Shown here piece after piece: positions 1 to 10,364 of a DNA stretch of 10,364 bases (position 1 is its first letter; every line of letters starts with the position of its first letter). The notes beneath the pieces are model-generated. The model searched no databases. It saw only the letters and a list, made by a program, of their open reading frames with translations, and was not told where the DNA came from. The stretch comes from a virus (Duplodnaviria; Heunggongvirae; Uroviricota; Caudoviricetes): the IMG/VR virus record IMGVR_UViG_2657245521_000008; one strand, written 5' to 3'. Position numbers and translations under genes: made by a program.

Positions 1-351
1 GTCGCAGTCCAGCGTAATGGTGAACTCACCCAGCGCTTTCAAATCTACTGCCGCACGAAGAGCACGGGCGATCAGACGCTGGATTTCCATGGTGCGTCCA
101 CCCTGCTTACCTTTCGCCGCTTCACGCGCGTTACGGGTGTGGGTAGAACGTGGCAGCATGCCGTACTCTGCGGTGATCCAGCCCTGGCCCTGACCTTTCA
201 GGAAGCGCGGCACGCCTTCTTCAATAGAGGCGGTACACAATACTTTGGTATCGCCAAATTCGACCAGCACCGAGCCTTCTGCATGTTTTGTATAGTTACG
301 AGTCAGGGTAACGGGACGCACCTGATTATTGCTACGGCCTGCTGGACGCAT
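1..351 (-). CDS. rph: Ribonuclease PH, N-terminal 117 codons; the gene's 3' end lies beyond the left edge of the window
   Basis: Reverse-complement translation from the ATG at 349-351 reads [117 protein letters not shown], which I recognise as the enterobacterial RNase PH N-terminus. The frame stays open to position 1. Confidence 0.9.
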
Positions 352-477: not shown

Positions 478-1341
478 ATGATCCGCAGTATGACCGCCTA
501 CGCCCGGCGTGAAATCAAGGGTGAATGGGGGAGCGCAACCTGGGAAATGCGCTCGGTAAACCAGCGTTATCTGGAAACTTACTTTCGTCTGCCGGAGCAG
601 TTCCGTAGCCTTGAACCTGTCGTTCGCGAGCGTATTCGTTCTCGCCTGACGCGCGGTAAAGTGGAATGTACCCTGCGCTATGAGCCAGATGTTAGCGCGC
701 AAGGTGAGCTGATCCTCAACGAAAAACTGGCTAAACAGCTGGTAACTGCCGCAAACTGGGTGAAAATGCAGAGTGACGAAGGGGAAATCAACCCGGTTGA
801 TATTCTCCGCTGGCCGGGGGTAATGGCAGCCCAGGAGCAGGATCTCGACGCGATTACCGCTGAAATTCTCGCGGCGCTGGATGGTACGCTGGACGACTTT
901 ATCGTCGCACGCGAAACCGAAGGTCAGGCGCTGAAAGCATTGATCGAGCAGCGTCTGGAAGGCGTCACCGCCGAAGTGGTCAAAGTCCGCGCCCATATGC
1001 CGGAAATCCTGCAATGGCAGCGTGAGCGTCTGGTCGCGAAGCTGGAAGATGCTCAGGTGCAACTGGAAAACAACCGTCTGGAGCAGGAGTTGGTTCTGCT
1101 GGCACAACGAATTGACGTTGCCGAAGAACTGGATCGCCTCGAAGCGCATGTCAAAGAGACCTACAACATTCTGAAGAAAAAAGAAGCGGTTGGTCGTCGT
1201 CTGGACTTTATGATGCAGGAGTTCAACCGCGAGTCGAACACTCTTGCGTCGAAATCTATCAATGCCGAAGTGACGAATTCTGCCATCGAGCTGAAAGTGT
1301 TGATTGAGCAGATGCGCGAGCAGATTCAGAATATCGAATAA
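478..1341 (+). CDS. yicC: YicC-family protein (287 aa)
   Basis: Complete ORF from the track, beginning MIRSMTAYARREIKGEWGSATWEMRSVNQRYLETYF and ending EQMREQIQNIE. Recognised as enterobacterial YicC, whose conserved position is divergent from rph. AGGAA Shine-Dalgarno about 8 nt upstream. Confidence 0.92.
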   Translation: MIRSMTAYARREIKGEWGSATWEMRSVNQRYLETYFRLPEQFRSLEPVVRERIRSRLTRGKVECTLRYEPDVSAQGELILNEKLAKQLVTAANWVKMQSDEGEINPVDILRWPGVMAAQEQDLDAITAEILAALDGTLDDFIVARETEGQALKALIEQRLEGVTAEVVKVRAHMPEILQWQRERLVAKLEDAQVQLENNRLEQELVLLAQRIDVAEELDRLEAHVKETYNILKKKEAVGRRLDFMMQEFNRESNTLASKSINAEVTNSAIELKVLIEQMREQIQNIE

Positions 1342-1380
1342 GCTATCAGTAAAAATCACCAAGCAGCAAAAAAACCACAA

Positions 1381-1405
1381 AGCCCGCGAAATGTCGGGCT
1401 TTTTT
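1381..1405 (+). terminator. Intrinsic (rho-independent) terminator downstream of yicC
   Basis: Stem agcccg (1381-1386) pairs with cgggct (1395-1400) around an 8-nt loop, followed by TTTTT at 1401-1405. It is preceded by an A-run, so it could act in both directions. Confidence 0.6.
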
Positions 1406-1450
1406 GTTATCATGAGCTATCATAACAACGCAACAAAGCGCACAATATGC

Positions 1451-1503
1451 GTGTACATAGAGGTGTACATAATGACTTTCATGTACATTGCTTTATGTAC
1501 ACC
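1451..1503. promoter_or_regulatory. Cluster of four palindromic TGTACA hexamers upstream of int; candidate integrase arm-type or AlpA/Vis-type binding sites within the int promoter region
   Basis: TGTACA occurs at 1452-1457, 1464-1469, 1482-1487 and 1496-1501. The first two copies are within an identical 9-mer gtgtacata and the last two share atgtaca. A CATAAT -10-like hexamer at 1468-1473 overlaps the cluster. Confidence 0.4.
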
Positions 1504-1530
1504 CCCATATTCGATATTCAGGTATTCGCA

Positions 1531-2784
1531 ATGCCAAAACTCACAGATATGCAGATCCGCGCATGGATAAAGGCGGGAGACAGATTTGATGGCAAGGCAG
1601 ACGGCAACGGCCTTTATATTTGCTACCCCAAAAACTACACAGTCCCGTTCTGGCGATTCCGCTATAAGCTCGCAGGAAAGCAGCGGGCTATGGTTATAGG
1701 CTCTTACTCCGAACTGTCACTATCAAAAGCCAGAGAAACAGCAAAAGAGCTGTCAGCCAGAGTTGCTCTTGGCTATGACGTAGCAGCAGAGAAACAGGAA
1801 CGAAAAGCTGAAGCACTGGCAAAAATGGAGGCTGAGAAAAACGCCATGCGTGTTTCAGATCTGGCCTCCGAATACTTCGAGCGCCAGATACTTCCGAGAT
1901 GGAAACATCCCGATATCCTTCGCCGGAGAATTGATAAGGATATTAACCCCTGCATTGGGCATATGAAGGTAGAGGATGTTAAGCCACGCCACATTGACGA
2001 CATGTTGAAAGGTATCGTTGACCGAGGAGCACCAACGATAGCAACAGATGTATTACGCTGGACACGCCGTATCTTTGACTATGGGATAAAACGCCACGCT
2101 CTGGAGATAAACCCTTGTTCAGCGTTTGAAGTATCTGATGCTGGTGGTAAAGAGGTTTCCCGCGACCGTTGGCTAACTCGCGATGAGCTTATCAGGCTAT
2201 TCGAGGCTATGCGCACCGCAAAAGGATTCAGCCGCCAAAACGAACTGACATTTAAACTATTGCTGGCACTATGCGTTCGTAAGATGGAGTTATGCGCCGC
2301 ACGATGGGAAGAGTTTGATTTAGATGGTGCGGTATGGCATTTGCCGGAAGAACGCAGCAAAAACGGAGACCCTATTGATATACCTCTACCTTCCCCAGCC
2401 GTTGAATGGTTGAGAGAGCTACACACCTTTTCATGTAATAGCGCATGGGTGCTTCCGGCCAGGAAGATGCAAAACAGAATGATCCCACATATTCAGGAAA
2501 GCACTTTACCCGTAGCACTGGCTAAGGTTCGCGCCGAAATGCCGGATGTGCCTAATTTCACGATTCACGACTTCCGACGCACCGCACGTACTCATTTAGC
2601 AGCATTGGGTGTTGATCCTGTCGTGGCGGAACGATGCCTCAATCATCGCATTAAGGGCGTAGAGGGGATTTATAACCGTCATCAGTATTTTGATGAGCGT
2701 AAAGCAGCACTGGCACAGTGGGCAGATCTGCTGGTGGCACTGGAAAGCGGAAAAGACTACAACGTAACGCCAATCAGAGCATGA
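1531..2784 (+). CDS. int: Tyrosine-type site-specific integrase, P4-like family (417 aa from the ATG at 1531)
   Basis: N-terminus MPKLTDMQIRAWIKAGDRFDGKADGNGLYICYPKNYTVPFWRFRYKLAGKQRAMVIGSY matches the P4/CP4-57 integrase arm-binding domain pattern. The C-terminus contains HDFRRT, LNH and YNRHQY, consistent with the catalytic R/H/R/Y region. The track ORF starts further upstream at 1447, but that extension has no family resemblance and overlaps the TGTACA repeats. Confidence 0.85.
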   Translation: MPKLTDMQIRAWIKAGDRFDGKADGNGLYICYPKNYTVPFWRFRYKLAGKQRAMVIGSYSELSLSKARETAKELSARVALGYDVAAEKQERKAEALAKMEAEKNAMRVSDLASEYFERQILPRWKHPDILRRRIDKDINPCIGHMKVEDVKPRHIDDMLKGIVDRGAPTIATDVLRWTRRIFDYGIKRHALEINPCSAFEVSDAGGKEVSRDRWLTRDELIRLFEAMRTAKGFSRQNELTFKLLLALCVRKMELCAARWEEFDLDGAVWHLPEERSKNGDPIDIPLPSPAVEWLRELHTFSCNSAWVLPARKMQNRMIPHIQESTLPVALAKVRAEMPDVPNFTIHDFRRTARTHLAALGVDPVVAERCLNHRIKGVEGIYNRHQYFDERKAALAQWADLLVALESGKDYNVTPIRA

Positions 2785-2802
2785 TGAGAGGAAAGATTCA
2801 TA

Positions 2803-3753
2803 ATGAAATTACCTGCGCATAAATATTATTCTTTGGATAAAGCAGCCAAACTGGCCGGATGTGAAGTATCCGATTTAATACACTATGCAGCAATTGGGGT
2901 TTTAGAAATATGTATAAAAATTCCACCTATTGAATTGTTTTACCATTACCCAAAAAATGAAGATGCCGAGCCAGAATTACTTAAAGTTGAAACGGATAGT
3001 ATTTTTCATATAGATACAAAAGCAGCACATGAGAATTATCTCCTTGATCTGAGCAATAAGGCAGATAATCTCGAATCATATGGCTTATCATCACTTGATT
3101 ACAAAAATAGCGATAACTATATGTATTTTATGAGGTTTTCATACAAATCAGAACATTTCTCAGTTATAGAGCGATACAATGTTGGGAAGGATGAAAGAGA
3201 TATCGAAAGATGGAGCGGTCTATTAGCAATTCCGCCTGCGTTCATAGATAACGATGAGCGGGAGCTATCAGAATGGGATGATTGGGAGATCTCTGTATGC
3301 GAACTGATGCCTCCGAGATGTGACGAGTTTAGCAAATCGAATAATTATGAAATCGGAGCTTTTTATATTGACGGCTGGTATGAAATAAGCCGAAACAAAA
3401 TGTATATAACTGACTATGAATACAATCTTCTTATAAATGGAGGAAAATATATTTATGACAGACCCATGCACAAACCATCCGCAAACAAGTTATCCAATGA
3501 TATAAATACGCTAAAAGTTAATAAACGTGCCGAACGGTACGCAGTCAATAGGGAGAAACTATTAAAATCTGCAATTTATATACTTAGTAAGTATCCAAAT
3601 GAATGCAGGGGAGAAAGGAAAGAAATAAGCCCTGAGAAGTGGCGTGACTGTCTTGTTCGTCATTTAGACGAAGTTCCACCACTTATGATAACTAATGAAG
3701 ATGTAATTCTTAAACATCTACGATCTGCGGCAAATGGCAAAGTGGATAGTTAA
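2803..3753 (+). CDS. Hypothetical protein (316 aa), AT-rich cargo gene of unknown function; candidate accessory or anti-phage gene
   Basis: Complete ORF with a GAGAGGAAAG Shine-Dalgarno-like stretch 8-12 nt upstream, starting 18 nt after the int stop. Two 60-nt lines counted by hand give roughly 30-37 percent G+C, against about 55 percent in a sampled int line. The protein is rich in Y/K/N/E/D/I and I recognise no domain. Confidence 0.7.
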   Translation: MKLPAHKYYSLDKAAKLAGCEVSDLIHYAAIGVLEICIKIPPIELFYHYPKNEDAEPELLKVETDSIFHIDTKAAHENYLLDLSNKADNLESYGLSSLDYKNSDNYMYFMRFSYKSEHFSVIERYNVGKDERDIERWSGLLAIPPAFIDNDERELSEWDDWEISVCELMPPRCDEFSKSNNYEIGAFYIDGWYEISRNKMYITDYEYNLLINGGKYIYDRPMHKPSANKLSNDINTLKVNKRAERYAVNREKLLKSAIYILSKYPNECRGERKEISPEKWRDCLVRHLDEVPPLMITNEDVILKHLRSAANGKVDS

Positions 3754-3763
3754 CTTACTATAG

Positions 3764-3790
3764 AGGTACTGCAAAATTACAGTACCTTTT
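3764..3790 (+). terminator. Putative intrinsic terminator after the cargo gene
   Basis: Perfect 8-bp inverted repeat aggtactg (3764-3771) / cagtacct (3780-3787) around an 8-nt loop, followed by a short T-run (TTTT at 3787-3790, first T within the stem). The stem is AT-rich and the U-tract short, so moderate strength. Confidence 0.45.
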
Positions 3791-3793
3791 CAT

Positions 3794-3807
3794 TGTATAT
3801 CTATACA
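3794..3807. promoter_or_regulatory. 14-bp palindrome TGTATATCTATACA upstream of alpA; candidate operator
   Basis: TGTATA (3794-3799) and TATACA (3802-3807) are exact reverse complements separated by TC, about 50 nt upstream of the alpA ATG. It shares the TGTA half-site with the TGTACA cluster upstream of int. Confidence 0.3.
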
Positions 3808-3859
3808 GCTAGATTTCTCGTAACGAAGCAACAACTATCGCTAAGAGGTTACGGGAATC

Positions 3860-4063
3860 ATGAACATCGACACTATCCCTACAAAAGGCTATATCAGACG
3901 CTTTCGCCTGGCTGAATTGCTGGGCGTTAGTGTATCCACCATCGACCGTAAAGTAAGAAACGGTTCACTACCACGTCCGGTAAAGCTGGGAGAAAAAATA
4001 ACTGCGTTTGATGCGGTTGAGATTCACAACTGGCTGGCAGAACGCCGCGGGAAGGTGGCCTGA
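3860..4063 (+). CDS. alpA: AlpA-family phage transcriptional regulator / excisionase-like DNA-binding protein (67 aa)
   Basis: MNIDTIPTKGYIRRFRLAELLGVSVSTIDRKVRNGSLPRPVKLGEKITAFDAVEIHNWLAERRGKVA fits the AlpA/Vis pattern of a short helix-turn-helix followed by the LP.P.K.G and W motifs. Size and position after int match CP4-57 and PICI alpA. Confidence 0.8.
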   Translation: MNIDTIPTKGYIRRFRLAELLGVSVSTIDRKVRNGSLPRPVKLGEKITAFDAVEIHNWLAERRGKVA

Positions 4064-4494
4064 TGGAAAAGAAAAACCGCCCATTACAGGCGGCTAATTC
4101 AGATATTCGCGTATCTGATGTTACGCCCCTTACAAAATCCCTTCAAGCACCAAAGCGCACACCGAAAAAGCATCGTGCCAGAGTCTATATGCTGCGTACT
4201 GGTATAGAGGGATGGACAGAAAATGACATTCTTCGCTACTGCCGTCTGTCTTCTGGTCGTAACTATGCAACAGAGTTAGAACGCCAGCTTGGAATCACTC
4301 TGGAGCGTATCGACGAAAAGAATCCTGATGGTATCGGAACACACCTTCGCTACCGTTTCTCCTGCCGTGGTGATGTTCTGAAAGTGATCACTCATATTAA
4401 CCATCTTGCGAACATAAATGATCACAACGGACTTTCTCAGCCGGAAATTGCCGACATTCTGAAACTCTACCCGGACGCGTTTAACGCCGCTTAA
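4063..4494 (+). CDS. Hypothetical protein (143 aa), basic N-terminus; possibly DNA-binding
   Basis: Start ATG overlaps the alpA stop (TGATG), and an AAGGTGG Shine-Dalgarno sits just upstream. The protein reads plausibly but I recognise no family. Confidence 0.6.
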   Translation: MEKKNRPLQAANSDIRVSDVTPLTKSLQAPKRTPKKHRARVYMLRTGIEGWTENDILRYCRLSSGRNYATELERQLGITLERIDEKNPDGIGTHLRYRFSCRGDVLKVITHINHLANINDHNGLSQPEIADILKLYPDAFNAA

Positions 4495-4506
4495 CGGAGA
4501 CTGAAA

Positions 4507-5340
4507 ATGAACATCGAAAAAAGCAGATTAATTTCTGAGGCCGCCCCTCATCTGAACGCCTCTCTGAGCACAATTAACGGTAATGAATTTGCCGCAATTG
4601 TCCCGGTTATTCCTGGTCATATCGGTGGGCGTGAAACCAATATTGTTAGCGCAAAAGCGTTACACAAAGCGTTGGGCGTGGGAAAAGACTTCTCTACATG
4701 GATCACTGATCGCATCTCTGAATATGACTTCACCATTGGGCACGATTACTCAGTCCATAAAACAATTTCCCCAAATTTGGGGAAAAGCCCGAATGGCGCG
4801 GCTTACAGCAAGATTAAGCAGTCTGGCAGACCCGGCAAAGACTATCTGTTAAGTGTCGGAATGGCGAAAGAACTGGCAATGATCGAACGCAATGATCAGG
4901 GTCGCGCTATCCGCCGTTATTTCATCCAGTGCGAGGAAGAATTACAGCGTAGCGTGCCTGAAATCGCCGCCCGCTATCGTCGCCAGCTAAAAGCCCGTAT
5001 CAGTGCCGCAAACAACTTTAAGCCAATGTGCGATGCGCTGAATATGGCCCGTGCCGAGATGGGGAAAACGACGCAGCAACACCACTACACAAACGAGAGC
5101 AATATGATTTCTCGTATCGTTCTTGGTGGGCTAACTGCTAAGCAGTGGGCGCGGATAAATGGCTATTCTGGCGAACCTCGCGACCATATGAACGCAGAAC
5201 AGCTTGAGCACCTCTCATATCTCGAAAGCACCAATATCACGTTAATTGATATGGGCATGGAATATGAGCAGCGCAAAGGAGAACTCACCCGCCTGTCGCA
5301 ACGCTGGCTCGCCAAGCGTCTGGAGGCGCTCAATGTCTAA
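4507..5340 (+). CDS. Phage antirepressor-like protein with AntA/AntB-type N-terminal domain (277 aa)
   Basis: The segment AAIVPVIPGHIGGRETNIVSAKALHKALGVGKDFSTWITDRISEYDFTIGHDY followed by DYLLSVGMAKELAMIERNDQGRAIRRYFIQCEEEL matches the conserved AntA antirepressor signature as I recall it. GGAGA Shine-Dalgarno 7 nt upstream. Confidence 0.78.
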   Translation: MNIEKSRLISEAAPHLNASLSTINGNEFAAIVPVIPGHIGGRETNIVSAKALHKALGVGKDFSTWITDRISEYDFTIGHDYSVHKTISPNLGKSPNGAAYSKIKQSGRPGKDYLLSVGMAKELAMIERNDQGRAIRRYFIQCEEELQRSVPEIAARYRRQLKARISAANNFKPMCDALNMARAEMGKTTQQHHYTNESNMISRIVLGGLTAKQWARINGYSGEPRDHMNAEQLEHLSYLESTNITLIDMGMEYEQRKGELTRLSQRWLAKRLEALNV

Positions 5341-5512
5341 GCCAACAGGAACACCACAACCACAAAAACGCTACAAAGATGCCCACGGAGCACTCGTTAC
5401 TGTCGAAAGCGTGTCTCACAACCGAGTGACGTTTTATCGCGACGGGTATCAATCGCCATGCGTACAACCGCTGGCACGTTTCATGAAGGAGTTCGCGGAG
5501 GTTAACCAATGA
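5333..5512 (+). CDS. Small hypothetical protein (59 aa) translationally coupled to the antirepressor gene
   Basis: The ATG at 5333 is preceded by GGAGG (5322-5326) with a 6-nt spacer, and overlaps the upstream stop (caATGtcTAA). The track ORF 5246..5512 is the same frame, but its upstream part lies inside the antirepressor gene with no ribosome-binding site. Confidence 0.5.
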   Translation: MSKPTGTPQPQKRYKDAHGALVTVESVSHNRVTFYRDGYQSPCVQPLARFMKEFAEVNQ

Positions 5513-6576
5513 TACCCGTCCAGAAGAAGACATTTTCACTGGCTGGTATGTCGCCAAAATCCAGCAATATGACGGCAAAGTCAGGCATTAATACAGCAGA
5601 TGCAAGCAAAGTTTATCATTTGCTGGTGGTCGGAACGGATGCCTTAACCATACCAGAAATCACGGGCGATGATGTTAGCGTTGAGAAGGTCAGCGGCTGC
5701 GCCAGAGAATTTCTGGTCGTAGATGACCTGTTCTGCTCGTGTAGTGACTCCACAAAAACATTCGTCCACGCGCGTGACGTTAACGAAATGAGCGCGATGT
5801 ACTGTGCTTCTGGTTCTTCCAATAGTGAGTTTTCGGAGTCCATAAAAAAGAGCTTGCCGTTATGCGGCAACACGGTTTATGGTTATAAGGCACCTCATAA
5901 AACGGGTGCCGGGATTGGCGTCCTGGTAAATCGAATGGCGACATATGACGCGCCGAGCGTCTTTTTTTATGTCGTAGGTCTGACTCACCCATTTTTTGGG
6001 CGTTGGTGTATAATCCAGCGCCTTTGTCAATCAATGGTGGCTCAGGCAGGGGCTTCTTCGGAAGCGCCGGTATCCATTCGAGCCGGTTACGCCAACCCTG
6101 TCTGGGCTACCACCAGCGAAATTGGCGTTTCCGGTGGTAGCGTTACATGCTATCGAATGGAGGCTGCCACATGCTGGCTACTACCCCTACCCAAAAACCG
6201 CAATTTATCTGGATTATCGCCGCAGTTCGCCGCGATTGCCCGACAATTACCGCCAAAATTCATCATATTGCTGCCGAGTCTGAACGCGATGCTCGCCGTT
6301 CTCTGGTGCGCGATCACATCTGCTTTTTTGCTGGTCGTATCCGCATGGAGGTGGCACATGATTAAAACCTACGATGTGCATATGGATCCCCTCGAACGCA
6401 CAAGCCAGATCATCACACTGACAGAAGTGATTAACGACATTCTGGTGAGCAACTCTCCCTCACGAGACGAAAGACTAAAGGCGTTACTCGCGATATTGGA
6501 TCTCGCCGTTCGTGACGTTCATTTCCTGCTGGAAGGTGGACAAATGCCATGCAAAACGGGGGCAACCAATGAATAA
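5509..6576 (+). CDS. Hypothetical protein as the stop-free ORF (355 aa); integrity doubtful, possibly a fusion of an upstream gene, a non-coding control region and a separate 72-aa gene starting at 6358
   Basis: GGAGG (5497-5501) lies 7 nt before the ATG at 5509, which overlaps the upstream stop (ATGA). No stop occurs in this frame until 6574-6576. However, 5947-6170 carries terminator, promoter and hairpin features, and in 6171-6357 this frame uses rare codons (cta, tta, cga, agg, ata) while another frame looks genuinely coding. An internal ATG at 6358 has its own GGAGG. Confidence 0.4.
5947..5968 (+). terminator. Terminator-like hairpin with a 7-T tract, lying inside the 355-codon ORF
   Basis: gacgc (5947-5951) pairs with gcgtc (5957-5961) around a 5-nt loop, then TTTTTTT at 5962-5968. 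Stop codons occur in the other two forward frames right here (TGA at 5946-5948, TAG at 5975-5977). Confidence 0.3.
6009..6014 (+). promoter_or_regulatory. Perfect TATAAT -10 hexamer (no clear -35), about 160 nt upstream of the ORF at 6171; candidate promoter for the small-gene/primase operon or for a leader RNA
   Basis: TATAAT at 6009-6014 is immediately preceded by TG and sits in an otherwise GC-rich stretch, about 40 nt downstream of the terminator-like hairpin. Confidence 0.3.
6171..6365 (+). CDS. Small hypothetical protein (64 aa) in a different frame from the 355-codon ORF
   Basis: GGAGG at 6159-6163 lies 7 nt before the ATG at 6171. Codons are typical of E. coli genes (ctg, gct, acc, ccg, atc, gcc, cgc, gat, gtg). 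The stop overlaps the next start as ATGATTAA at 6358-6365. The track shows this frame as 6147..6365. Confidence 0.45.
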   Translation: MLATTPTQKPQFIWIIAAVRRDCPTITAKIHHIAAESERDARRSLVRDHICFFAGRIRMEVAHD

Positions 6577-6763
6577 CTCAATTAATACCCCTCGCCTTAC
6601 GTCCGCACTTCAATTAATCGAGCAAGCAGCGGCTGTCCTGGTTGCTGTCAGTCTTTCGGCTGAAGAAATGGACGCTGCTGATGTCGTGGATGCGATTAAA
6701 GCGTGCTCATCTTTGGTTAACGATGCCCGTGCCGAGCTGGTAATTCTTGGGGGTGAAAAATGA
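6569..6763 (+). CDS. Small hypothetical protein (64 aa)
   Basis: The ATG at 6569 overlaps the upstream stop as ATGAATAA, with GGGGG about 8 nt upstream. It is the plausible start within track ORF 6512..6763, and its stop overlaps the next ATG (ATGA at 6760-6763). Confidence 0.5.
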   Translation: MNNSINTPRLTSALQLIEQAAAVLVAVSLSAEEMDAADVVDAIKACSSLVNDARAELVILGGEK

Positions 6764-7023
6764 ATATCAACTTAATTTATCGTCATCCGTGTGAGCTGGA
6801 AATTGAATCATTGCTGGGGCGCGAAGAGCCATATCCAGACACATTCACTCCCGCAGATTGCGCGACTGAACGGCTTACCAGAGCGCGCACAGGTCTGGTT
6901 CATGTGATGAATGAGATTGTTCCCTCGGTGGGAGGGGAACAGGCGACAGTAATCAATAGCTGGCTACAAAAAGTTACCTCCCTGATAGATATCGGTTTAA
7001 TCGATGTGGAGAGTGCGAAATGA
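6760..7023 (+). CDS. Small hypothetical protein (87 aa)
   Basis: Complete ORF with start/stop overlaps on both sides (ATGA), GGGGGTG upstream, and ordinary coding-like composition. Confidence 0.6.
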   Translation: MNINLIYRHPCELEIESLLGREEPYPDTFTPADCATERLTRARTGLVHVMNEIVPSVGGEQATVINSWLQKVTSLIDIGLIDVESAK

Positions 7024-7241
7024 CCAACATCCAGCTCATTGAAGCGCAATGTCGCATCGAACAGGTTCAGACTGTTTTAGGGTTCTGGCTTGAAGGGGCC
7101 AGCCCCAGCAACAGAGACAAGTTAATGATTGGCGCGGTTATGTCACTGCTCAATGGCGTACCAGAAGCTATTCAGGAAGCGGACGAATTGTTGGGCAAAT
7201 ATGAGTTACAGAATCATTCAGGCGAGGCAAAACATGAATAA
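7020..7241 (+). CDS. Small hypothetical protein (73 aa)
   Basis: Complete ORF. The start overlaps the previous stop (ATGA), GGAGAG lies upstream, and the stop overlaps the next start as ATGAATAA at 7234-7241. Confidence 0.6.
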   Translation: MTNIQLIEAQCRIEQVQTVLGFWLEGASPSNRDKLMIGAVMSLLNGVPEAIQEADELLGKYELQNHSGEAKHE

Positions 7242-7836
7242 TTTCTTAACTTTCCATGCAGAAGCAACGCCTGACGGCGTAAACATCATGTACCGCAGCA
7301 ACGATGGCATGACAGAACGCGTTGAGACCGTCTCATATATTGATGCCGCAAATCGTCTGGATGCCGGGGATTATGACGATAAACCAGATGAAGGCATGTT
7401 TATACATCTCGCTATTGCCAGTGGCGGCAACCAGGGATATTTCGATTACACATCACAGCATCACGTGATTATGTGGCGCTGGCTGATAGCAACAGCATTC
7501 ATCAATGAAATGAGAAAGGAAAACGGCACCGTCAGCATTATTGATGACAGTGGCAATCATTCCGTGGTTTCTGTTTATTCCAATGGCATCGTCGCCATGC
7601 CGCTGTATCCAGTAGCAGAGCGCCTCGCTATGGCAAACAACATTGAGGGCGCAATGATCGAGAAATATGGTGTTGATGTCGGAACAAATAATGCCATCAT
7701 TTTTTACAGCAACATGTTCGATGTCGAACAGGGAACACTCACTTCGTTTGGGCGAGAAGTGCTTGCCGATCTTCACAACAGCTTTATTGCCGAACTAAAC
7801 GAAAACGGCATCCCAGAAGCACCAGTGACGCACTAA
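7234..7836 (+). CDS. Hypothetical protein (200 aa) immediately upstream of the primase gene
   Basis: The ATG at 7234 is preceded by GAGG with a 6-nt spacer. The track ORF starts at 7129, but that extension overlaps the upstream gene in another frame. No recognisable domain. Confidence 0.62.
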   Translation: MNNFLTFHAEATPDGVNIMYRSNDGMTERVETVSYIDAANRLDAGDYDDKPDEGMFIHLAIASGGNQGYFDYTSQHHVIMWRWLIATAFINEMRKENGTVSIIDDSGNHSVVSVYSNGIVAMPLYPVAERLAMANNIEGAMIEKYGVDVGTNNAIIFYSNMFDVEQGTLTSFGREVLADLHNSFIAELNENGIPEAPVTH

Positions 7837-7848
7837 ACGGGGGCCAGA

Positions 7849-10260
7849 ATGCGAAACATTGATCTTATCCGTCAGGTTATCAGTGCGTCTGAAAACAACT
7901 GGCCTCATGTGCTGGGCTGCCTGAACATAAATGTCCCTGACTCTCCGCGCCGTCATGCTCCCTGCCCTGCATGTGGGGGCAAAGATCGATTCCGGTTCGA
8001 TGACAACGGGCGCGGTAGCTTCATCTGTAATCAGTGCGGCGCTGGTGATGGGCTGGATTTAATTAAACGCGTAAATAACTGCGACACAACAGAGGCGGCG
8101 CTGCTTGCCGCTGATGTTCTGGGTATTGATTACCGGACAACGGAAACACCAGAAGCCACCAGCCAGAAACGGGAACAACTGGAAACCGAGCGCCAGCGAC
8201 GCGAACAGGAGCGCCTGAAAAGGGCGGAGAAGGACGAACAACAAAGACGGGATACGTTTTCCCGTCAGTTTGATGACATGCGCAGAAAGGCTGTAAACGG
8301 CAAATCTGATTATCTGGTTGCGAAAGGGGTAGGTGATTTTACATTCCCCGTGTTGCCCGATGGATCTCTGTTGCTGGCGCTGGTGGATAAATCCGGCGCA
8401 GTCACAGCAGCACAGACTATTACCTCACATGGTGAAAAAAGACTCCTGACAGGTTCAGCAAAGCGGGGGGCATATCACGCCATAAACGCACCAGAAACAA
8501 CACAGAGCATCTTAATCGCAGAAGGGCTGGCAACGGCATTATCTGCCCATTTAATTCGTCCAGAGGCGCTGACAGTGGCGGCGATTGATGCCGGGAACCT
8601 GTTATATGTCGCCCAGGTACTGCGGGATAAATTTCCTTCAGCACAAATCATCATTGCTGCGGATAACGACCACAGCGAAGGAAGACAAAACACGGGGAGA
8701 ATAGCAGCAGAAAAAGCAGCTTTATCTGTTTCTGGATGGGTGGCATTACCCCCGACAGGTCACAAAGCAGACTGGAATGATTACCACCAAAAACACGGCA
8801 TTAAATGCGCCACAGAAGCGTTCAATAAGTCAATGTACCAACCACAGGGTAATGGCGTGAAACAGGAGCCACAGACCATTGAGGGAAGCGATTTTAAGGT
8901 TATGGATACCGACCCACTGAAACCAAGAATAGAAAGCCGCGAGGATGGTATTTATTGGGTATCTCCGAGAGCTGACAGCCAGAGTGGAGAAATCATCAAT
9001 AACGAAAGCTGGTTATGTTCTCCGTTAAGCGTTATCGGTACTGGCAGAGACGATAAAGACCAGTATCTCATTCTTCGCTGGCTGTCGTTTGGTTCTGAAA
9101 CGCCGACAACCGCTGCCATTCCACTGGCTGATATTGGTGAACGTGAAGGATGGCGCACACTTAAAGCTGGTGGGGTAAATGTCACGACCAAAAGCAGCCT
9201 CAGAGCAATACTGGCAGACTGGCTACAACGCAGTGGCTCTCGTGAATTGTGGCGTGTTGCTCATGCCACTGGCTGGCAATGCGGAGCGTACATCATGCCT
9301 GATGGGGAAATCATCGGAACACCTGAAAATCCTGTGCTGTTCAGCGGGAGAAGCTCAGCCGCAGCCGGATATACCGTCTCAGGGAGCGCGAAAAGCTGGC
9401 GTGATAACGTGGCGCGTCTGGCCTTTGGTAACTATTCAATGATGACCGGGATCGGCGCAGCACTGGCAGCGCCATTGATTGGGCTGGTGGGCGCTGACGG
9501 GTTCGGCATTCATTTCTATGAGCAGTCGAGCGCGGGTAAGACCACCACGGCAAACGTGGCGAGCAGCTTATACGGCAACCCTGATTTACTGCGGCTGACG
9601 TGGTACGGAACCGCGCTGGGGCTGGCAAATGAGGCCGCCGCCCACAATGACGGATTAATGCCGCTTGATGAAGTTGGTCAGGGCGCTGATCCTGTCAGCG
9701 TTTCACAGTCTGCCTATGCGTTATTTAACGGTGTAGGGAAACTGCAAGGCGCTAAAGATGGTGGAAACCGGGATCTAAAACGCTGGCGTACAGTGGCAAT
9801 CAGCACCGGAGAAATGGATTTAGAAACATTTATCGCTACTTCCGGGCGAAAAACCAAAGCCGGGCAACTGGTGCGACTGCTGAATATTCCGTTGAGTAAA
9901 GCAGTACGCTTTCACGATTACCAGAACGGAAAACAGCACGCAGACGCACTGAAAGACGCTTACCAGCATCACCATGGCGCAGCCGGGCGTGAGTGGATTA
10001 AATGGCTGGCAGACCACCAGCAACAGGCTATTAAAACTGTTCGTGATTGCGAAAGCAGATGGAGAAGCCTGATCCCATCCGATTATGGTGAGCAGGTTCA
10101 CCGTGTAGCCGCGCGATTTGCCATTCTGGAGGCCGCATTGTTGTTAGGCGAGGTTGTAACAGGCTGGGATGCTCAGACATGCCGTGATGCGATACAGCAC
10201 AGCTATAACGCATGGTTGCGCGAGTTCGGCACAAGTACGTGGGAACCGTGGTCGGGTTAA
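7849..10260 (+). CDS. Primase / replication initiation protein (803 aa): N-terminal zinc-binding primase motif, Toprim domain, C-terminal NTPase/helicase-like domain (P4 alpha / PICI Pri-Rep type)
   Basis: CPACGGKDRFRFDDNGRGSFICNQCGAGDGLDL at residues 38-72 is a Cys4 primase zinc-ribbon motif. ILIAEGLATALSAH ... IIIAADNDHSEGRQNTGRIAAEKAA at residues 221-290 is Toprim-like (E ... DxD). A P-loop-like SSAGKTT lies at residues 560-566. GGGGG Shine-Dalgarno precedes the ATG. Confidence 0.9.
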   Translation: MRNIDLIRQVISASENNWPHVLGCLNINVPDSPRRHAPCPACGGKDRFRFDDNGRGSFICNQCGAGDGLDLIKRVNNCDTTEAALLAADVLGIDYRTTETPEATSQKREQLETERQRREQERLKRAEKDEQQRRDTFSRQFDDMRRKAVNGKSDYLVAKGVGDFTFPVLPDGSLLLALVDKSGAVTAAQTITSHGEKRLLTGSAKRGAYHAINAPETTQSILIAEGLATALSAHLIRPEALTVAAIDAGNLLYVAQVLRDKFPSAQIIIAADNDHSEGRQNTGRIAAEKAALSVSGWVALPPTGHKADWNDYHQKHGIKCATEAFNKSMYQPQGNGVKQEPQTIEGSDFKVMDTDPLKPRIESREDGIYWVSPRADSQSGEIINNESWLCSPLSVIGTGRDDKDQYLILRWLSFGSETPTTAAIPLADIGEREGWRTLKAGGVNVTTKSSLRAILADWLQRSGSRELWRVAHATGWQCGAYIMPDGEIIGTPENPVLFSGRSSAAAGYTVSGSAKSWRDNVARLAFGNYSMMTGIGAALAAPLIGLVGADGFGIHFYEQSSAGKTTTANVASSLYGNPDLLRLTWYGTALGLANEAAAHNDGLMPLDEVGQGADPVSVSQSAYALFNGVGKLQGAKDGGNRDLKRWRTVAISTGEMDLETFIATSGRKTKAGQLVRLLNIPLSKAVRFHDYQNGKQHADALKDAYQHHHGAAGREWIKWLADHQQQAIKTVRDCESRWRSLIPSDYGEQVHRVAARFAILEAALLLGEVVTGWDAQTCRDAIQHSYNAWLREFGTSTWEPWSG

Positions 10261-10364
10261 TCATTGCGGGCGTTGCCCTGCACTTTAAAATTCCCGAAGG
10301 TTACACTCTGACCTTGATGCTGATTACCACCCTCGCCAGCTACCTGATATTGCGCAAAAACTAC

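Follow-up and report, generated by a model that had tools for sequence, protein, structure and literature searches.

We re-examined the IMG/VR virus record IMGVR_UViG_2657245521_000008, a stretch of 10,364 nucleotides (nt) classified in the Caudoviricetes (the whole stretch is called the window here), and conclude that it very probably contains the left part (8.9 kb) of a phage-inducible chromosomal island (PICI) of the Gram-negative type, whose own tyrosine integrase placed it at the yicC stop codon. Such elements have been described before: Gram-negative PICIs are known from this yicC site, and the core of the present one has been characterised experimentally as EcCIMP1, an element of Escherichia coli MP1 (Pick, Stadel, Raivio, ISME J 2025; PMC11773190). 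The yicC satellite itself adds little, as PICIs at the yicC 3′ end were in the reference set of 2018 and were mapped in 2022/2023. What the analysis adds is that unrelated sequences meet at 10237/10238 of the window and the apparent C-terminus of its primase is therefore not real; that the question of the yicC terminator is settled, the terminator being supplied by the element; that the linkage of yicC with this integrase extends from Enterobacterales to Betaproteobacteria; and that a pac-like site lying antisense in an 'Ash' open reading frame (ORF) gives a lead on the packaging question left open in the EcCIMP1 paper. The first-pass annotation had missed the yhfK tail of the window, an isrK-C4-icd module (5890-6365) and a terS fragment (5657-5763).

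We compared the element with the criteria for Gram-negative PICIs of Fillol-Salom et al. 2018 (PMC6092414). The int (1531-2784), alpA (3860-4063) and primase (from 7849) genes follow one another in that order and in one direction, and structural and lysis genes are absent. Two complete relatives, H1 (strain 20AR1039, L001) and SFE8 (L094), extend for 17.1 and 16.4 kb, respectively, from the yicC stop codon to attR, within the ~10-20 kb given for such elements, and carry two P22-like ejection-protein genes. In both, the primase gene is followed by a small ORF, a gene for a P22 gp20-like ejection protein (Pfam Inj_translocase) and a gene for a second injection protein; further to the right lie a few minus-strand ORFs, a PerC-family regulator gene and attR. 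The complete relatives showed no genes for capsid, portal, terminase, tail or lysis, and a late zone with captured helper genes has been described in Gram-negative PICIs (10.1101/2022.07.18.500453). The first-pass annotation had proposed a satellite or PICI-type element with a plus-strand repertoire of int, alpA, antirepressor, small coupled genes and primase. Gene order, empty sites and relatives of 16-17 kb without virion or lysis genes bear this out, and the repertoire itself is confirmed by Pfam, PHROG and RefSeq. All genes annotated downstream of yicC in near-identical RefSeq genomes are on the plus strand, and its statement that capsid, tail and lysis genes are lacking holds for the window by Pfam and PHROG searches.

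Insertion at the 3′ end of yicC

The target gene yicC (478-1341, plus strand; Pfam YicC-like_N/YicC-like_C) is intact in the window and ends with TAA at 1339-1341. In the empty site of E. coli K-12, 220 nt separate yicC from dinD. By BLAST, the K-12 homology of both the window and H1 ends at the yicC TAA, and in H1 it restarts 17.1 kb further on, again at a TAA. Thus the comparison with an element-free junction that the first-pass annotation had called for shows homology breaking exactly after the yicC stop codon. Its placement of the attachment site in the yicC 3′ end or terminator region is upheld, since empty-site alleles exist and complete copies end, directly before dinD, in a sequence that repeats the 3′ end of yicC imperfectly. 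The direct repeat that it expected beyond the right edge of the window was found in the complete relatives, as an imperfect attR, and not in the window copy itself, which enters yhfK first.

Comparison of attB, attL and attR among K-12, H1, SFE8 and RM13514, together with published sites, placed the attL core region at 1318-1349 (...CAGATTCAGAATATCGAATAA|GCTATCAG...). The corresponding attB of K-12 reads ...CAGATTCAGAACATCGAATAA|CTCGTAAC..., and the attR sites read ...CAGATTCAATATTGAGTAA|CTCGTAAC... in H1 (pseudo-yicC end at L001 33464-33482) and ...CAGATTCAGAGTAA|CTCGTAAC... in SFE8 (pseudo-yicC end at L094 ~28744-28760). The pseudo-yicC end at attR therefore differs by strain, CAGATTCAATATTGAGTAA in H1 versus CAGATTCAGAGTAA in SFE8. 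From these sequences we infer that attP contains a degenerate version of the 3′ end of yicC and that crossover would take place at or beside the TAA; the predicted attP crossover would read ...ATTGAGTAA|GC(T/C)ATCAG....

An intrinsic terminator follows at 1379-1408 on the plus strand (AAAGCCCG-CGAAATGT-CGGGCTTT followed by T6; terminator scan). This terminator is not in the K-12 empty site, and a hairpin occupies the same place in the Salmonella, Serratia, Aeromonas and Vogesella copies. The native yicC terminator (GCCGCCACTCAAACAGAGCGGCATTTTT) has been moved to the attR side, in front of dinD. The terminator now behind yicC is element DNA that replaces the native one. Of the two origins left open in the first-pass annotation, native or reconstituted by the element, supply by the element is the one that stands, and the native copy is displaced rather than retained behind yicC. 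The int gene (ATG at 1531) sits ~123 nt past the terminator, in agreement with the ~125 nt reported before.

Four TGTACA(T) repeats lie before int at 1451-1502 (starting at 1452, 1464, 1482 and 1496). TGTACA occurs at only these four places in the window, all within 1452-1501, and the 9-mer GTGTACATA, searched as an exact match across 40 kb of L001, is confined to attL (3 copies) and attR (2 copies). The repeats are presumed to be the arm-type integrase-binding sites of the P' arm. A tRNA or tmRNA target was considered and rejected: ARAGORN and Rfam found no tRNA or tmRNA gene in the window, including the interval between yicC and int for which their absence had been noted before. The first-pass annotation had contrasted integration at yicC with integration at a tRNA gene; the yicC site is not unusual and is the published site of CfCIP10159 and EcCIRM13514.

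To describe how often the site is occupied in E. coli we used 5426 complete genomes. This attL together with int is present in 335 of them (~6%), 320 near full length; a matching attR occurs in 300, and at least 80% of the whole window in 132. An EcCIRM13514-type attL at yicC was found in 402 genomes. With a probe spanning the empty junction, an uninterrupted yicC-dinD junction was detected in at least 4192 genomes (at least 77%). The site is thus occupied by this attL type in 320 genomes and by the EcCIRM13514 type in 402, with ~500 further non-empty genomes. The case that would have argued against a mobile element, the same gene block at this locus in all relatives, does not occur.

The association of the integrase with yicC extends well beyond E. 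coli. When homologues of Int were scanned across GTDB species representatives and those with enough flanking sequence were counted, 50 of the 56 with at least 40% identity lay on the same strand as yicC, at a median of 192 nt downstream of it, compared with 1 of the 18 homologues below 40% identity that was linked to yicC. Linked loci were found in Aeromonas, Tolumonas, Zobellella, Vogesella, Azonexus, Propionivibrio and Steroidobacteraceae. The order of stop codon, T-run hairpin and four arm repeats is kept in all inspected copies except those of Steroidobacteraceae, and the arm motif changes alongside the integrase, from GTGTAC to GTGCAC to TGTAGCT. Targeting of the yicC 3′ end is thus an old and stable property of this integrase clade, from Enterobacterales to Betaproteobacteria. 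Among the records, L014 (CACSKA010000004.1), titled Chryseobacterium sp. 18061, contains a yicC with 92% identity to that of E. coli, together with a yicC PICI whose Int is 90% identical; a wrong label or contamination of the assembly by an enterobacterium is the probable cause.

Gene content and functional modules

A 107-bp fragment of a P22-type small terminase gene (terS, gene 3) lies on the minus strand at 5657-5763, 94% identical over 102 nt to P22 and 91% identical over 107 nt to IME10. Among the hits listed from a phage collection, this stretch was the element's only similarity. The fragment is antisense to the element genes, inside the Ash ORF. The curated P22 record BK000583 places the 22-bp pac site at nt 4-25, and nt 9-110 are matched by the fragment; in the alignment, similarity starts at the first pac base and runs ~85 nt downstream, with none upstream. 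The pac-equivalent 22-mer of the element (5742-5763, minus strand) reads GAATGTTTTTGTGGAGTCACTA in the sense direction, compared with GAAGATTTATCTGAAGTCGTTA in P22 and GAAGGTTTTTCTGACGTCACAT in IME10. P22 initiation cuts fall within ~120 bp around pac (PMC10996546). The fragment is present in H1, SFE8 and EcCIMP1, and a search of yicC PICIs from other genera did not find it. Across PICI copies the pac-like 22-mer is nearly constant, and the adjoining part resembles P22 in the window and IME10 in H1 and SFE8, an allele pattern that suggests repeated exchange with this phage group. The packaging mechanism of EcCIMP1 is stated to be unknown, and its transfer by Kapi1 is very inefficient (PMC11773190). 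EcCIMP1-type PICIs are without a terS, rpp or capsid-remodelling module, and automated tools grade them as doubtful 'Type C' satellites. We therefore put forward the fragment as a candidate pac mimic for helpers with a P22-type small terminase, a proposal that we regard as having at best an even chance of being right.

A putative RNA immunity module of the P4/P1 type is found in the same ORF. It consists of an isrK-like RNA (5890-5967; Rfam RF01394, 67.1 bits against a gathering score of 50) with an intrinsic terminator at 5947-5968 (terminator scan), a C4/CI-type antisense RNA (6030-6117; RF01695, 79.5 bits against a gathering score of 45) and an ORF of 64 aa for an Icd-like cell-division inhibitor (6171-6365; NCBIfam NF033153, 70.4 bits against a cut-off of 25), all on the plus strand. 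The icd-like ORF is without RefSeq annotation in H1 and SFE8, where the long Ash ORF is annotated, and is itself annotated at the equivalent place in EcCIMP1. An extended -10 promoter-like sequence (TGTATAAT, 6007-6014, plus strand) lies 16 nt upstream of C4 and may serve as its promoter. In the long stem into which the C4 RNA folds, a hairpin loop exposes CCATTCGA (6074) and an internal loop exposes ACGCCAA (6089). The complementary motifs, TCGAATGG and TTGGCGT, each occur twice in the window, in isrK and after C4. The first target (TTGGCGT at 5915, TCGAATGG at 5931) is just ahead of the isrK terminator; the second (6122-6163, plus strand; TTGGCGT at 6122, TCGAATGG at 6153) overlaps the GGAGG of icd (6159-6163). 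By analogy with the phage systems discussed below, the C4 RNA would repress icd and the replication genes behind it until overridden by late transcription. The 'Ash family' ORF (5509-6576, plus strand, 355 aa, eta-like) houses the pac-like fragment, isrK, C4 and, in a different frame, icd. The RNA genes lie where its Pfam Ash domain (residues 124-232, nt 5878-6204) is encoded, and conservation of the domain may therefore largely reflect those genes.

Between int and alpA lies an orphan ORF of 316 aa ('X316', 2803-3753, plus strand). Its GC content is ~35-38% compared with ~49% for the rest of the element, and it has no family match in Pfam, PHROG, PADLOC or NCBIfam. An Xis/MerR-like winged helix at the N-terminus of the protein is followed by a hypervariable, beta-rich middle part and by a C-terminal helical domain that is invariant. 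In every context examined, the yicC PICIs of Serratia, Salmonella and E. coli and an Enterobacter satellite, the family directly follows a satellite integrase; members directly after a satellite int include L005 8001-8957, L006 8001-8963, L008 7001-7957 and L010 7001-7966. A reasonable guess is that the 316-aa protein is a regulator or recombination cofactor. The family also occurs in a satellite of the Enterobacter cloacae complex (L006/L007, 1395-13831), where int is followed by the 316-aa-family ORF, Bro-N and a D5-type primase; this satellite stands directly after prophage terminase, portal and Mu-F genes and is thus embedded in a helper, with no alpA called.

The remaining genes complete the layout. 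The window starts with the 5′ part of rph (1-351, minus strand). The tyrosine integrase (1531-2784, plus strand, 417 aa) has Pfam domains Arm-DNA-bind_3, Phage_int_M and Phage_integrase and belongs to PHROG 1. Its start is most likely ATG 1531, and not the ATG at 1447 of the longest ORF, because 1531 is the RefSeq start in near-identical genomes, the Arm-DNA-binding domain begins at residue 32 of the long ORF (Pfam), and ATGCCAAAACT at this start recurs unchanged in the Salmonella copy and almost unchanged in the Serratia copy (ATGGCAAAGCT), the upstream sequence diverging in both. The alpA gene (3860-4063, plus strand, 67 aa; Pfam Phage_AlpA; PHROG 66, excisionase/regulator) presumably encodes the master activator and excisionase. 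It is followed by a 143-aa ORF (4063-4494) without a family match in Pfam, PHROG or NCBIfam, a gene for an AntA/Bro-type antirepressor-like protein of 277 aa (4507-5340; Pfam AntA; PHROG anti-repressor) and one for a DUF4222 small protein (5333-5512; Pfam), all on the plus strand. Beyond the Ash ORF, four small plus-strand ORFs (6569-6763, 6760-7023, 7020-7241 and 7234-7836, from the RefSeq annotation of H1) overlap by 4-8 nt and match PHROG 20558 and 1515, both groups of unknown function. In SFE8, the 87-aa ORF equivalent to window 6760-7023 (L094 17759-18022) is named 'nicotinic acetylcholine receptor subunit beta' in RefSeq, an evident misannotation. The primase/replication gene (7849-10237, plus strand) encodes Zn-ribbon, TOPRIM and DUF927 domains (Pfam) and belongs to PHROG 1139, DNA primase. 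A search for defence cargo with PADLOC was negative for the 316-aa ORF and the other ORFs of unknown function, and the sole PADLOC match among the window proteins was a weak one of PDC-S22 to the AntA C-terminus.

Taken together with what is reported for EcCIMP1, EcCICFT073, P4 and P1, from which the individual steps are inferred, this gene content suggests a life cycle. In the resting state, a constitutive C4/CI-type RNA would pair with its two targets, in the isrK-like leader and at the icd ribosome-binding site, causing early termination or a translation block, so that icd and the downstream replication genes stay off. Upon lytic growth of a helper of the P22 group (Lederbergvirus), alpA would be switched on and activate itself. 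Int and AlpA would then excise the element, and the primase would replicate it from an origin downstream of its own gene, beyond the window. Packaging into helper capsids could start at the pac-like site (5742-5763), and after transfer Int would reinsert the element at yicC. A joint proposal, which we hold only tentatively, is that EcCIMP1-type PICIs are packaged by pac-site mimicry, with P22/IME10-type Lederbergviruses rather than Kapi1 as efficient helpers, and that the 316-aa protein is a satellite regulator or recombination cofactor whose variable domain possibly senses helper proteins.

The chimeric right end and alternative explanations

The last 127 nt of the window (10238-10364, plus strand) are not element DNA. 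They are 100% identical to a piece from the middle of yhfK, a chromosomal gene adjoining crp. The right limit of 10364 given to the element by the first-pass annotation is therefore off by 127 nt. All 25 top-ranked near-full-length genome matches listed end at 10237. The primase has 918 aa in intact copies, of which the window holds the first 796 codons, and the 803-aa ORF of the window (7849-10260) is a primase::yhfK fusion. In a three-way alignment the switch at 10237/10238 is abrupt, with at most one base of microhomology and none that is convincing. The largest k-mer commonly used by SPAdes is 127. Because the length of the foreign tail is exactly this number and the tail stands at the very end of the sequence, we are fairly confident that it is a contig-end assembly artefact.

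A real rearrangement in the source strain is an improbable explanation of this joint. On the K-12 map, the primase side and yhfK have the same reading direction and the path jumps ~330 kb backwards, which fits the novel joint of a tandem duplication from yhfK to the element and not a deletion. The join is clean and in a single orientation, and illegitimate joins without microhomology do occur. Against this, the junction was found in none of the 5426 complete E. coli genomes and in none of the GTDB species representatives, the fusion protein is not on record in the gene catalogue, and a 127-nt tail at a sequence end is the pattern we would expect from a k=127 assembly-graph artefact. A closer call is whether the terS fragment has no function and was left as a scar by recombination with a P22-like phage, a reading to which we give slightly less than an even chance. 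Its restriction to E. coli EcCIMP1-type copies and its absence from yicC PICIs of other genera favour a scar, as do the 7 of 22 positions at which the 22-mer departs from P22 pac and the lack of this terS type in Kapi1, the sole proven helper of EcCIMP1. Against a scar, the homology begins exactly at the first base of P22 pac and reaches ~85 nt into the region of P22 initiation cuts. The antisense orientation argues that the fragment is kept as DNA and not as protein, and conservation of the 22-mer among copies whose neighbouring sequence follows phage alleles points to repeated exchange.

As to the identity of the element, a P4-family satellite with P2-type helpers and CI-RNA immunity would share the C4/CI-type RNA and isrK-like leader inside an eta-like 'Ash' ORF, the alpA-family gene, the TOPRIM primase, the unidirectional early genes and an integrase with the arm-binding architecture of the P4 type. 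We consider this very unlikely: in a sequence-profile search sid, psu and delta were neither annotated nor Pfam-matched among the downstream ORFs of H1, the captured DNA is P22-like and not P2-like (Inj_translocase, the terS/pac fragment), the near-identical EcCIMP1 is mobilised by a Lederbergvirus, and C4 and isrK have already been reported within Gram-negative PICIs. Still further from the evidence is a prophage, decayed or complete, which we regard as extremely improbable. P22-like ejection genes and a terS fragment are indeed found in the relatives, and the initial annotation of EcCIMP1 was that of an incomplete prophage (PMC11773190). The same gene order nevertheless recurs at 16-17 kb in many unrelated strains, with neither a repressor/cro switch nor genes for capsid, portal, terminase, tail or lysis; Gram-negative PICIs typically show this unidirectional int-alpA-primase layout, and a near-identical core works as a satellite. 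A full prophage was rejected specifically from the gene content of H1 and SFE8, because these complete relatives have no virion or lysis genes and measure 16.4-17.1 kb.

Several observations weigh against a mobile yicC PICI that is packaged as outlined above. At the crossover, identity between attP and attB in E. coli consists of the TAA and scattered bases (..ATTGAGTAAGC.. versus ..ATCGAATAACT..), and identity over the TAA only is short for the overlap of a tyrosine recombinase. The E. coli site may be sub-optimal, or copies may spread mainly via homologous recombination of the flanks; the yicC genes of Citrobacter, Salmonella and Serratia end in ATCGAGTAA, a better fit to attP than E. coli yicC. 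The window copy ends before the final 122 codons of the primase gene and has no origin, late zone or attR; it would be dead if the yhfK junction were real. The excision and transfer behaviour is taken from EcCIMP1, which shares the core and not the int/alpA pair of the window. The 22-mer is identical to P22 pac at 15 of 22 positions. Finally, Kapi1 has a 142-aa terS of a different type and no pac-like fragment, so that the proposed packaging step would not explain transfer by this phage.

Comparison with known systems

The arrangement of c4 followed by icd, with a C4-family RNA that matches two bipartite targets and lies in an eta-like ORF, is that of P1/P7 immI and the P4 CI RNA. As in P1/P7, c4 precedes icd and an RNA target overlaps the icd ribosome-binding site. 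In P1/P7, however, the antirepressor gene (ant) is coupled downstream of icd, whereas AntA (4507-5340) is encoded upstream of c4-icd in the window. In contrast to P4, annotation and Pfam showed no sid, psu or delta among the downstream ORFs of H1, and small ORFs and the primase gene lie downstream of icd.

The integration site links the element to two described PICIs. Reference Gram-negative PICIs integrated in yicC with drifting identity blocks have been reported (10.1101/2022.07.18.500453), and attL and attR of CfCIP10159 and EcCIRM13514 are given under 'YicC_N' (supplement, PMC10111431). CfCIP10159 of Citrobacter freundii (Fillol-Salom 2018; mapped by Mageeney et al. 2023) is also at the yicC 3′ end. 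Compared through the published att sites, its attL is nearly the same as that of the window, with the yicC end, GCTATCAG.., a GCCCGC hairpin with T-run and GTTATCATGxGCTATCATxACAACGCAACAAAGCGC. The attL/attR identity block in Citrobacter is 11 bp (ATCGAGTAAGC), whereas E. coli yicC ends in ATCGAATAA-CT and shares the TAA and scattered bases. EcCIRM13514 (E. coli O145:H28 RM13514) is likewise found at yicC-dinD, with GTGTACA arm repeats on either side; its Int shares 90% identity with the window Int over 416 aa, and its order of int, ORF, alpA, antirepressors, icd, primase and PerC matches. It differs in that its crossover block is ~10 nt further upstream (GAGCAGATTCAA) and the element gives yicC a new tail (AATGTGGAGTAA), and in having a 216-aa ORF after int, another primase, and SSB and ProQ/FinO genes.

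The body of the element is that of EcCIMP1, for which CfCIP10159 has been named the closest relative and EcCIMP1-like elements with variable integrase and AlpA have been noted (PMC11773190). EcCIMP1 sits in tRNA-Thr and excises only when the P22-like Lederbergvirus Kapi1 is present or induced; excision needs its int and canonical alpA, and transduction occurs at low frequency (PMC11773190). The 143-aa ORF, AntA, DUF4222, the Ash/C4/icd region, the small ORFs and the TOPRIM-DUF927 primase are near-identical in EcCIMP1 and the window. The primase is 99% identical over 795 aa and AntA 98% identical, and the H1 homologue of the 143-aa ORF shares the accession WP_000412531.1 (identical sequence) with the EcCIMP1 protein. 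The likeness of 98-100% refers to the three proteins compared, between the 143-aa ORF and the primase; two H1 proteins carry EcCIMP1 accessions, and the other core proteins were compared through the RefSeq accessions of H1 and EcCIMP1. Genes for P22-like ejection proteins and a PerC-family gene lie downstream both in EcCIMP1 and in relatives of the H1/SFE8 type. In contrast, Int of EcCIMP1 is 29% identical (unrelated) and its AlpA 36% identical to those of the window, its tRNA-Thr site has the core att TCCTATTATC, it is without the 316-aa ORF between int and alpA, and it has a second alpA and a larger late zone in a total of 20 kb. Overall, these comparisons indicate that the element is, as judged by its sequence, a mosaic of a yicC integration module (attL, int, the 316-aa ORF and alpA) and an EcCIMP1-type body from the 143-aa ORF to the primase.

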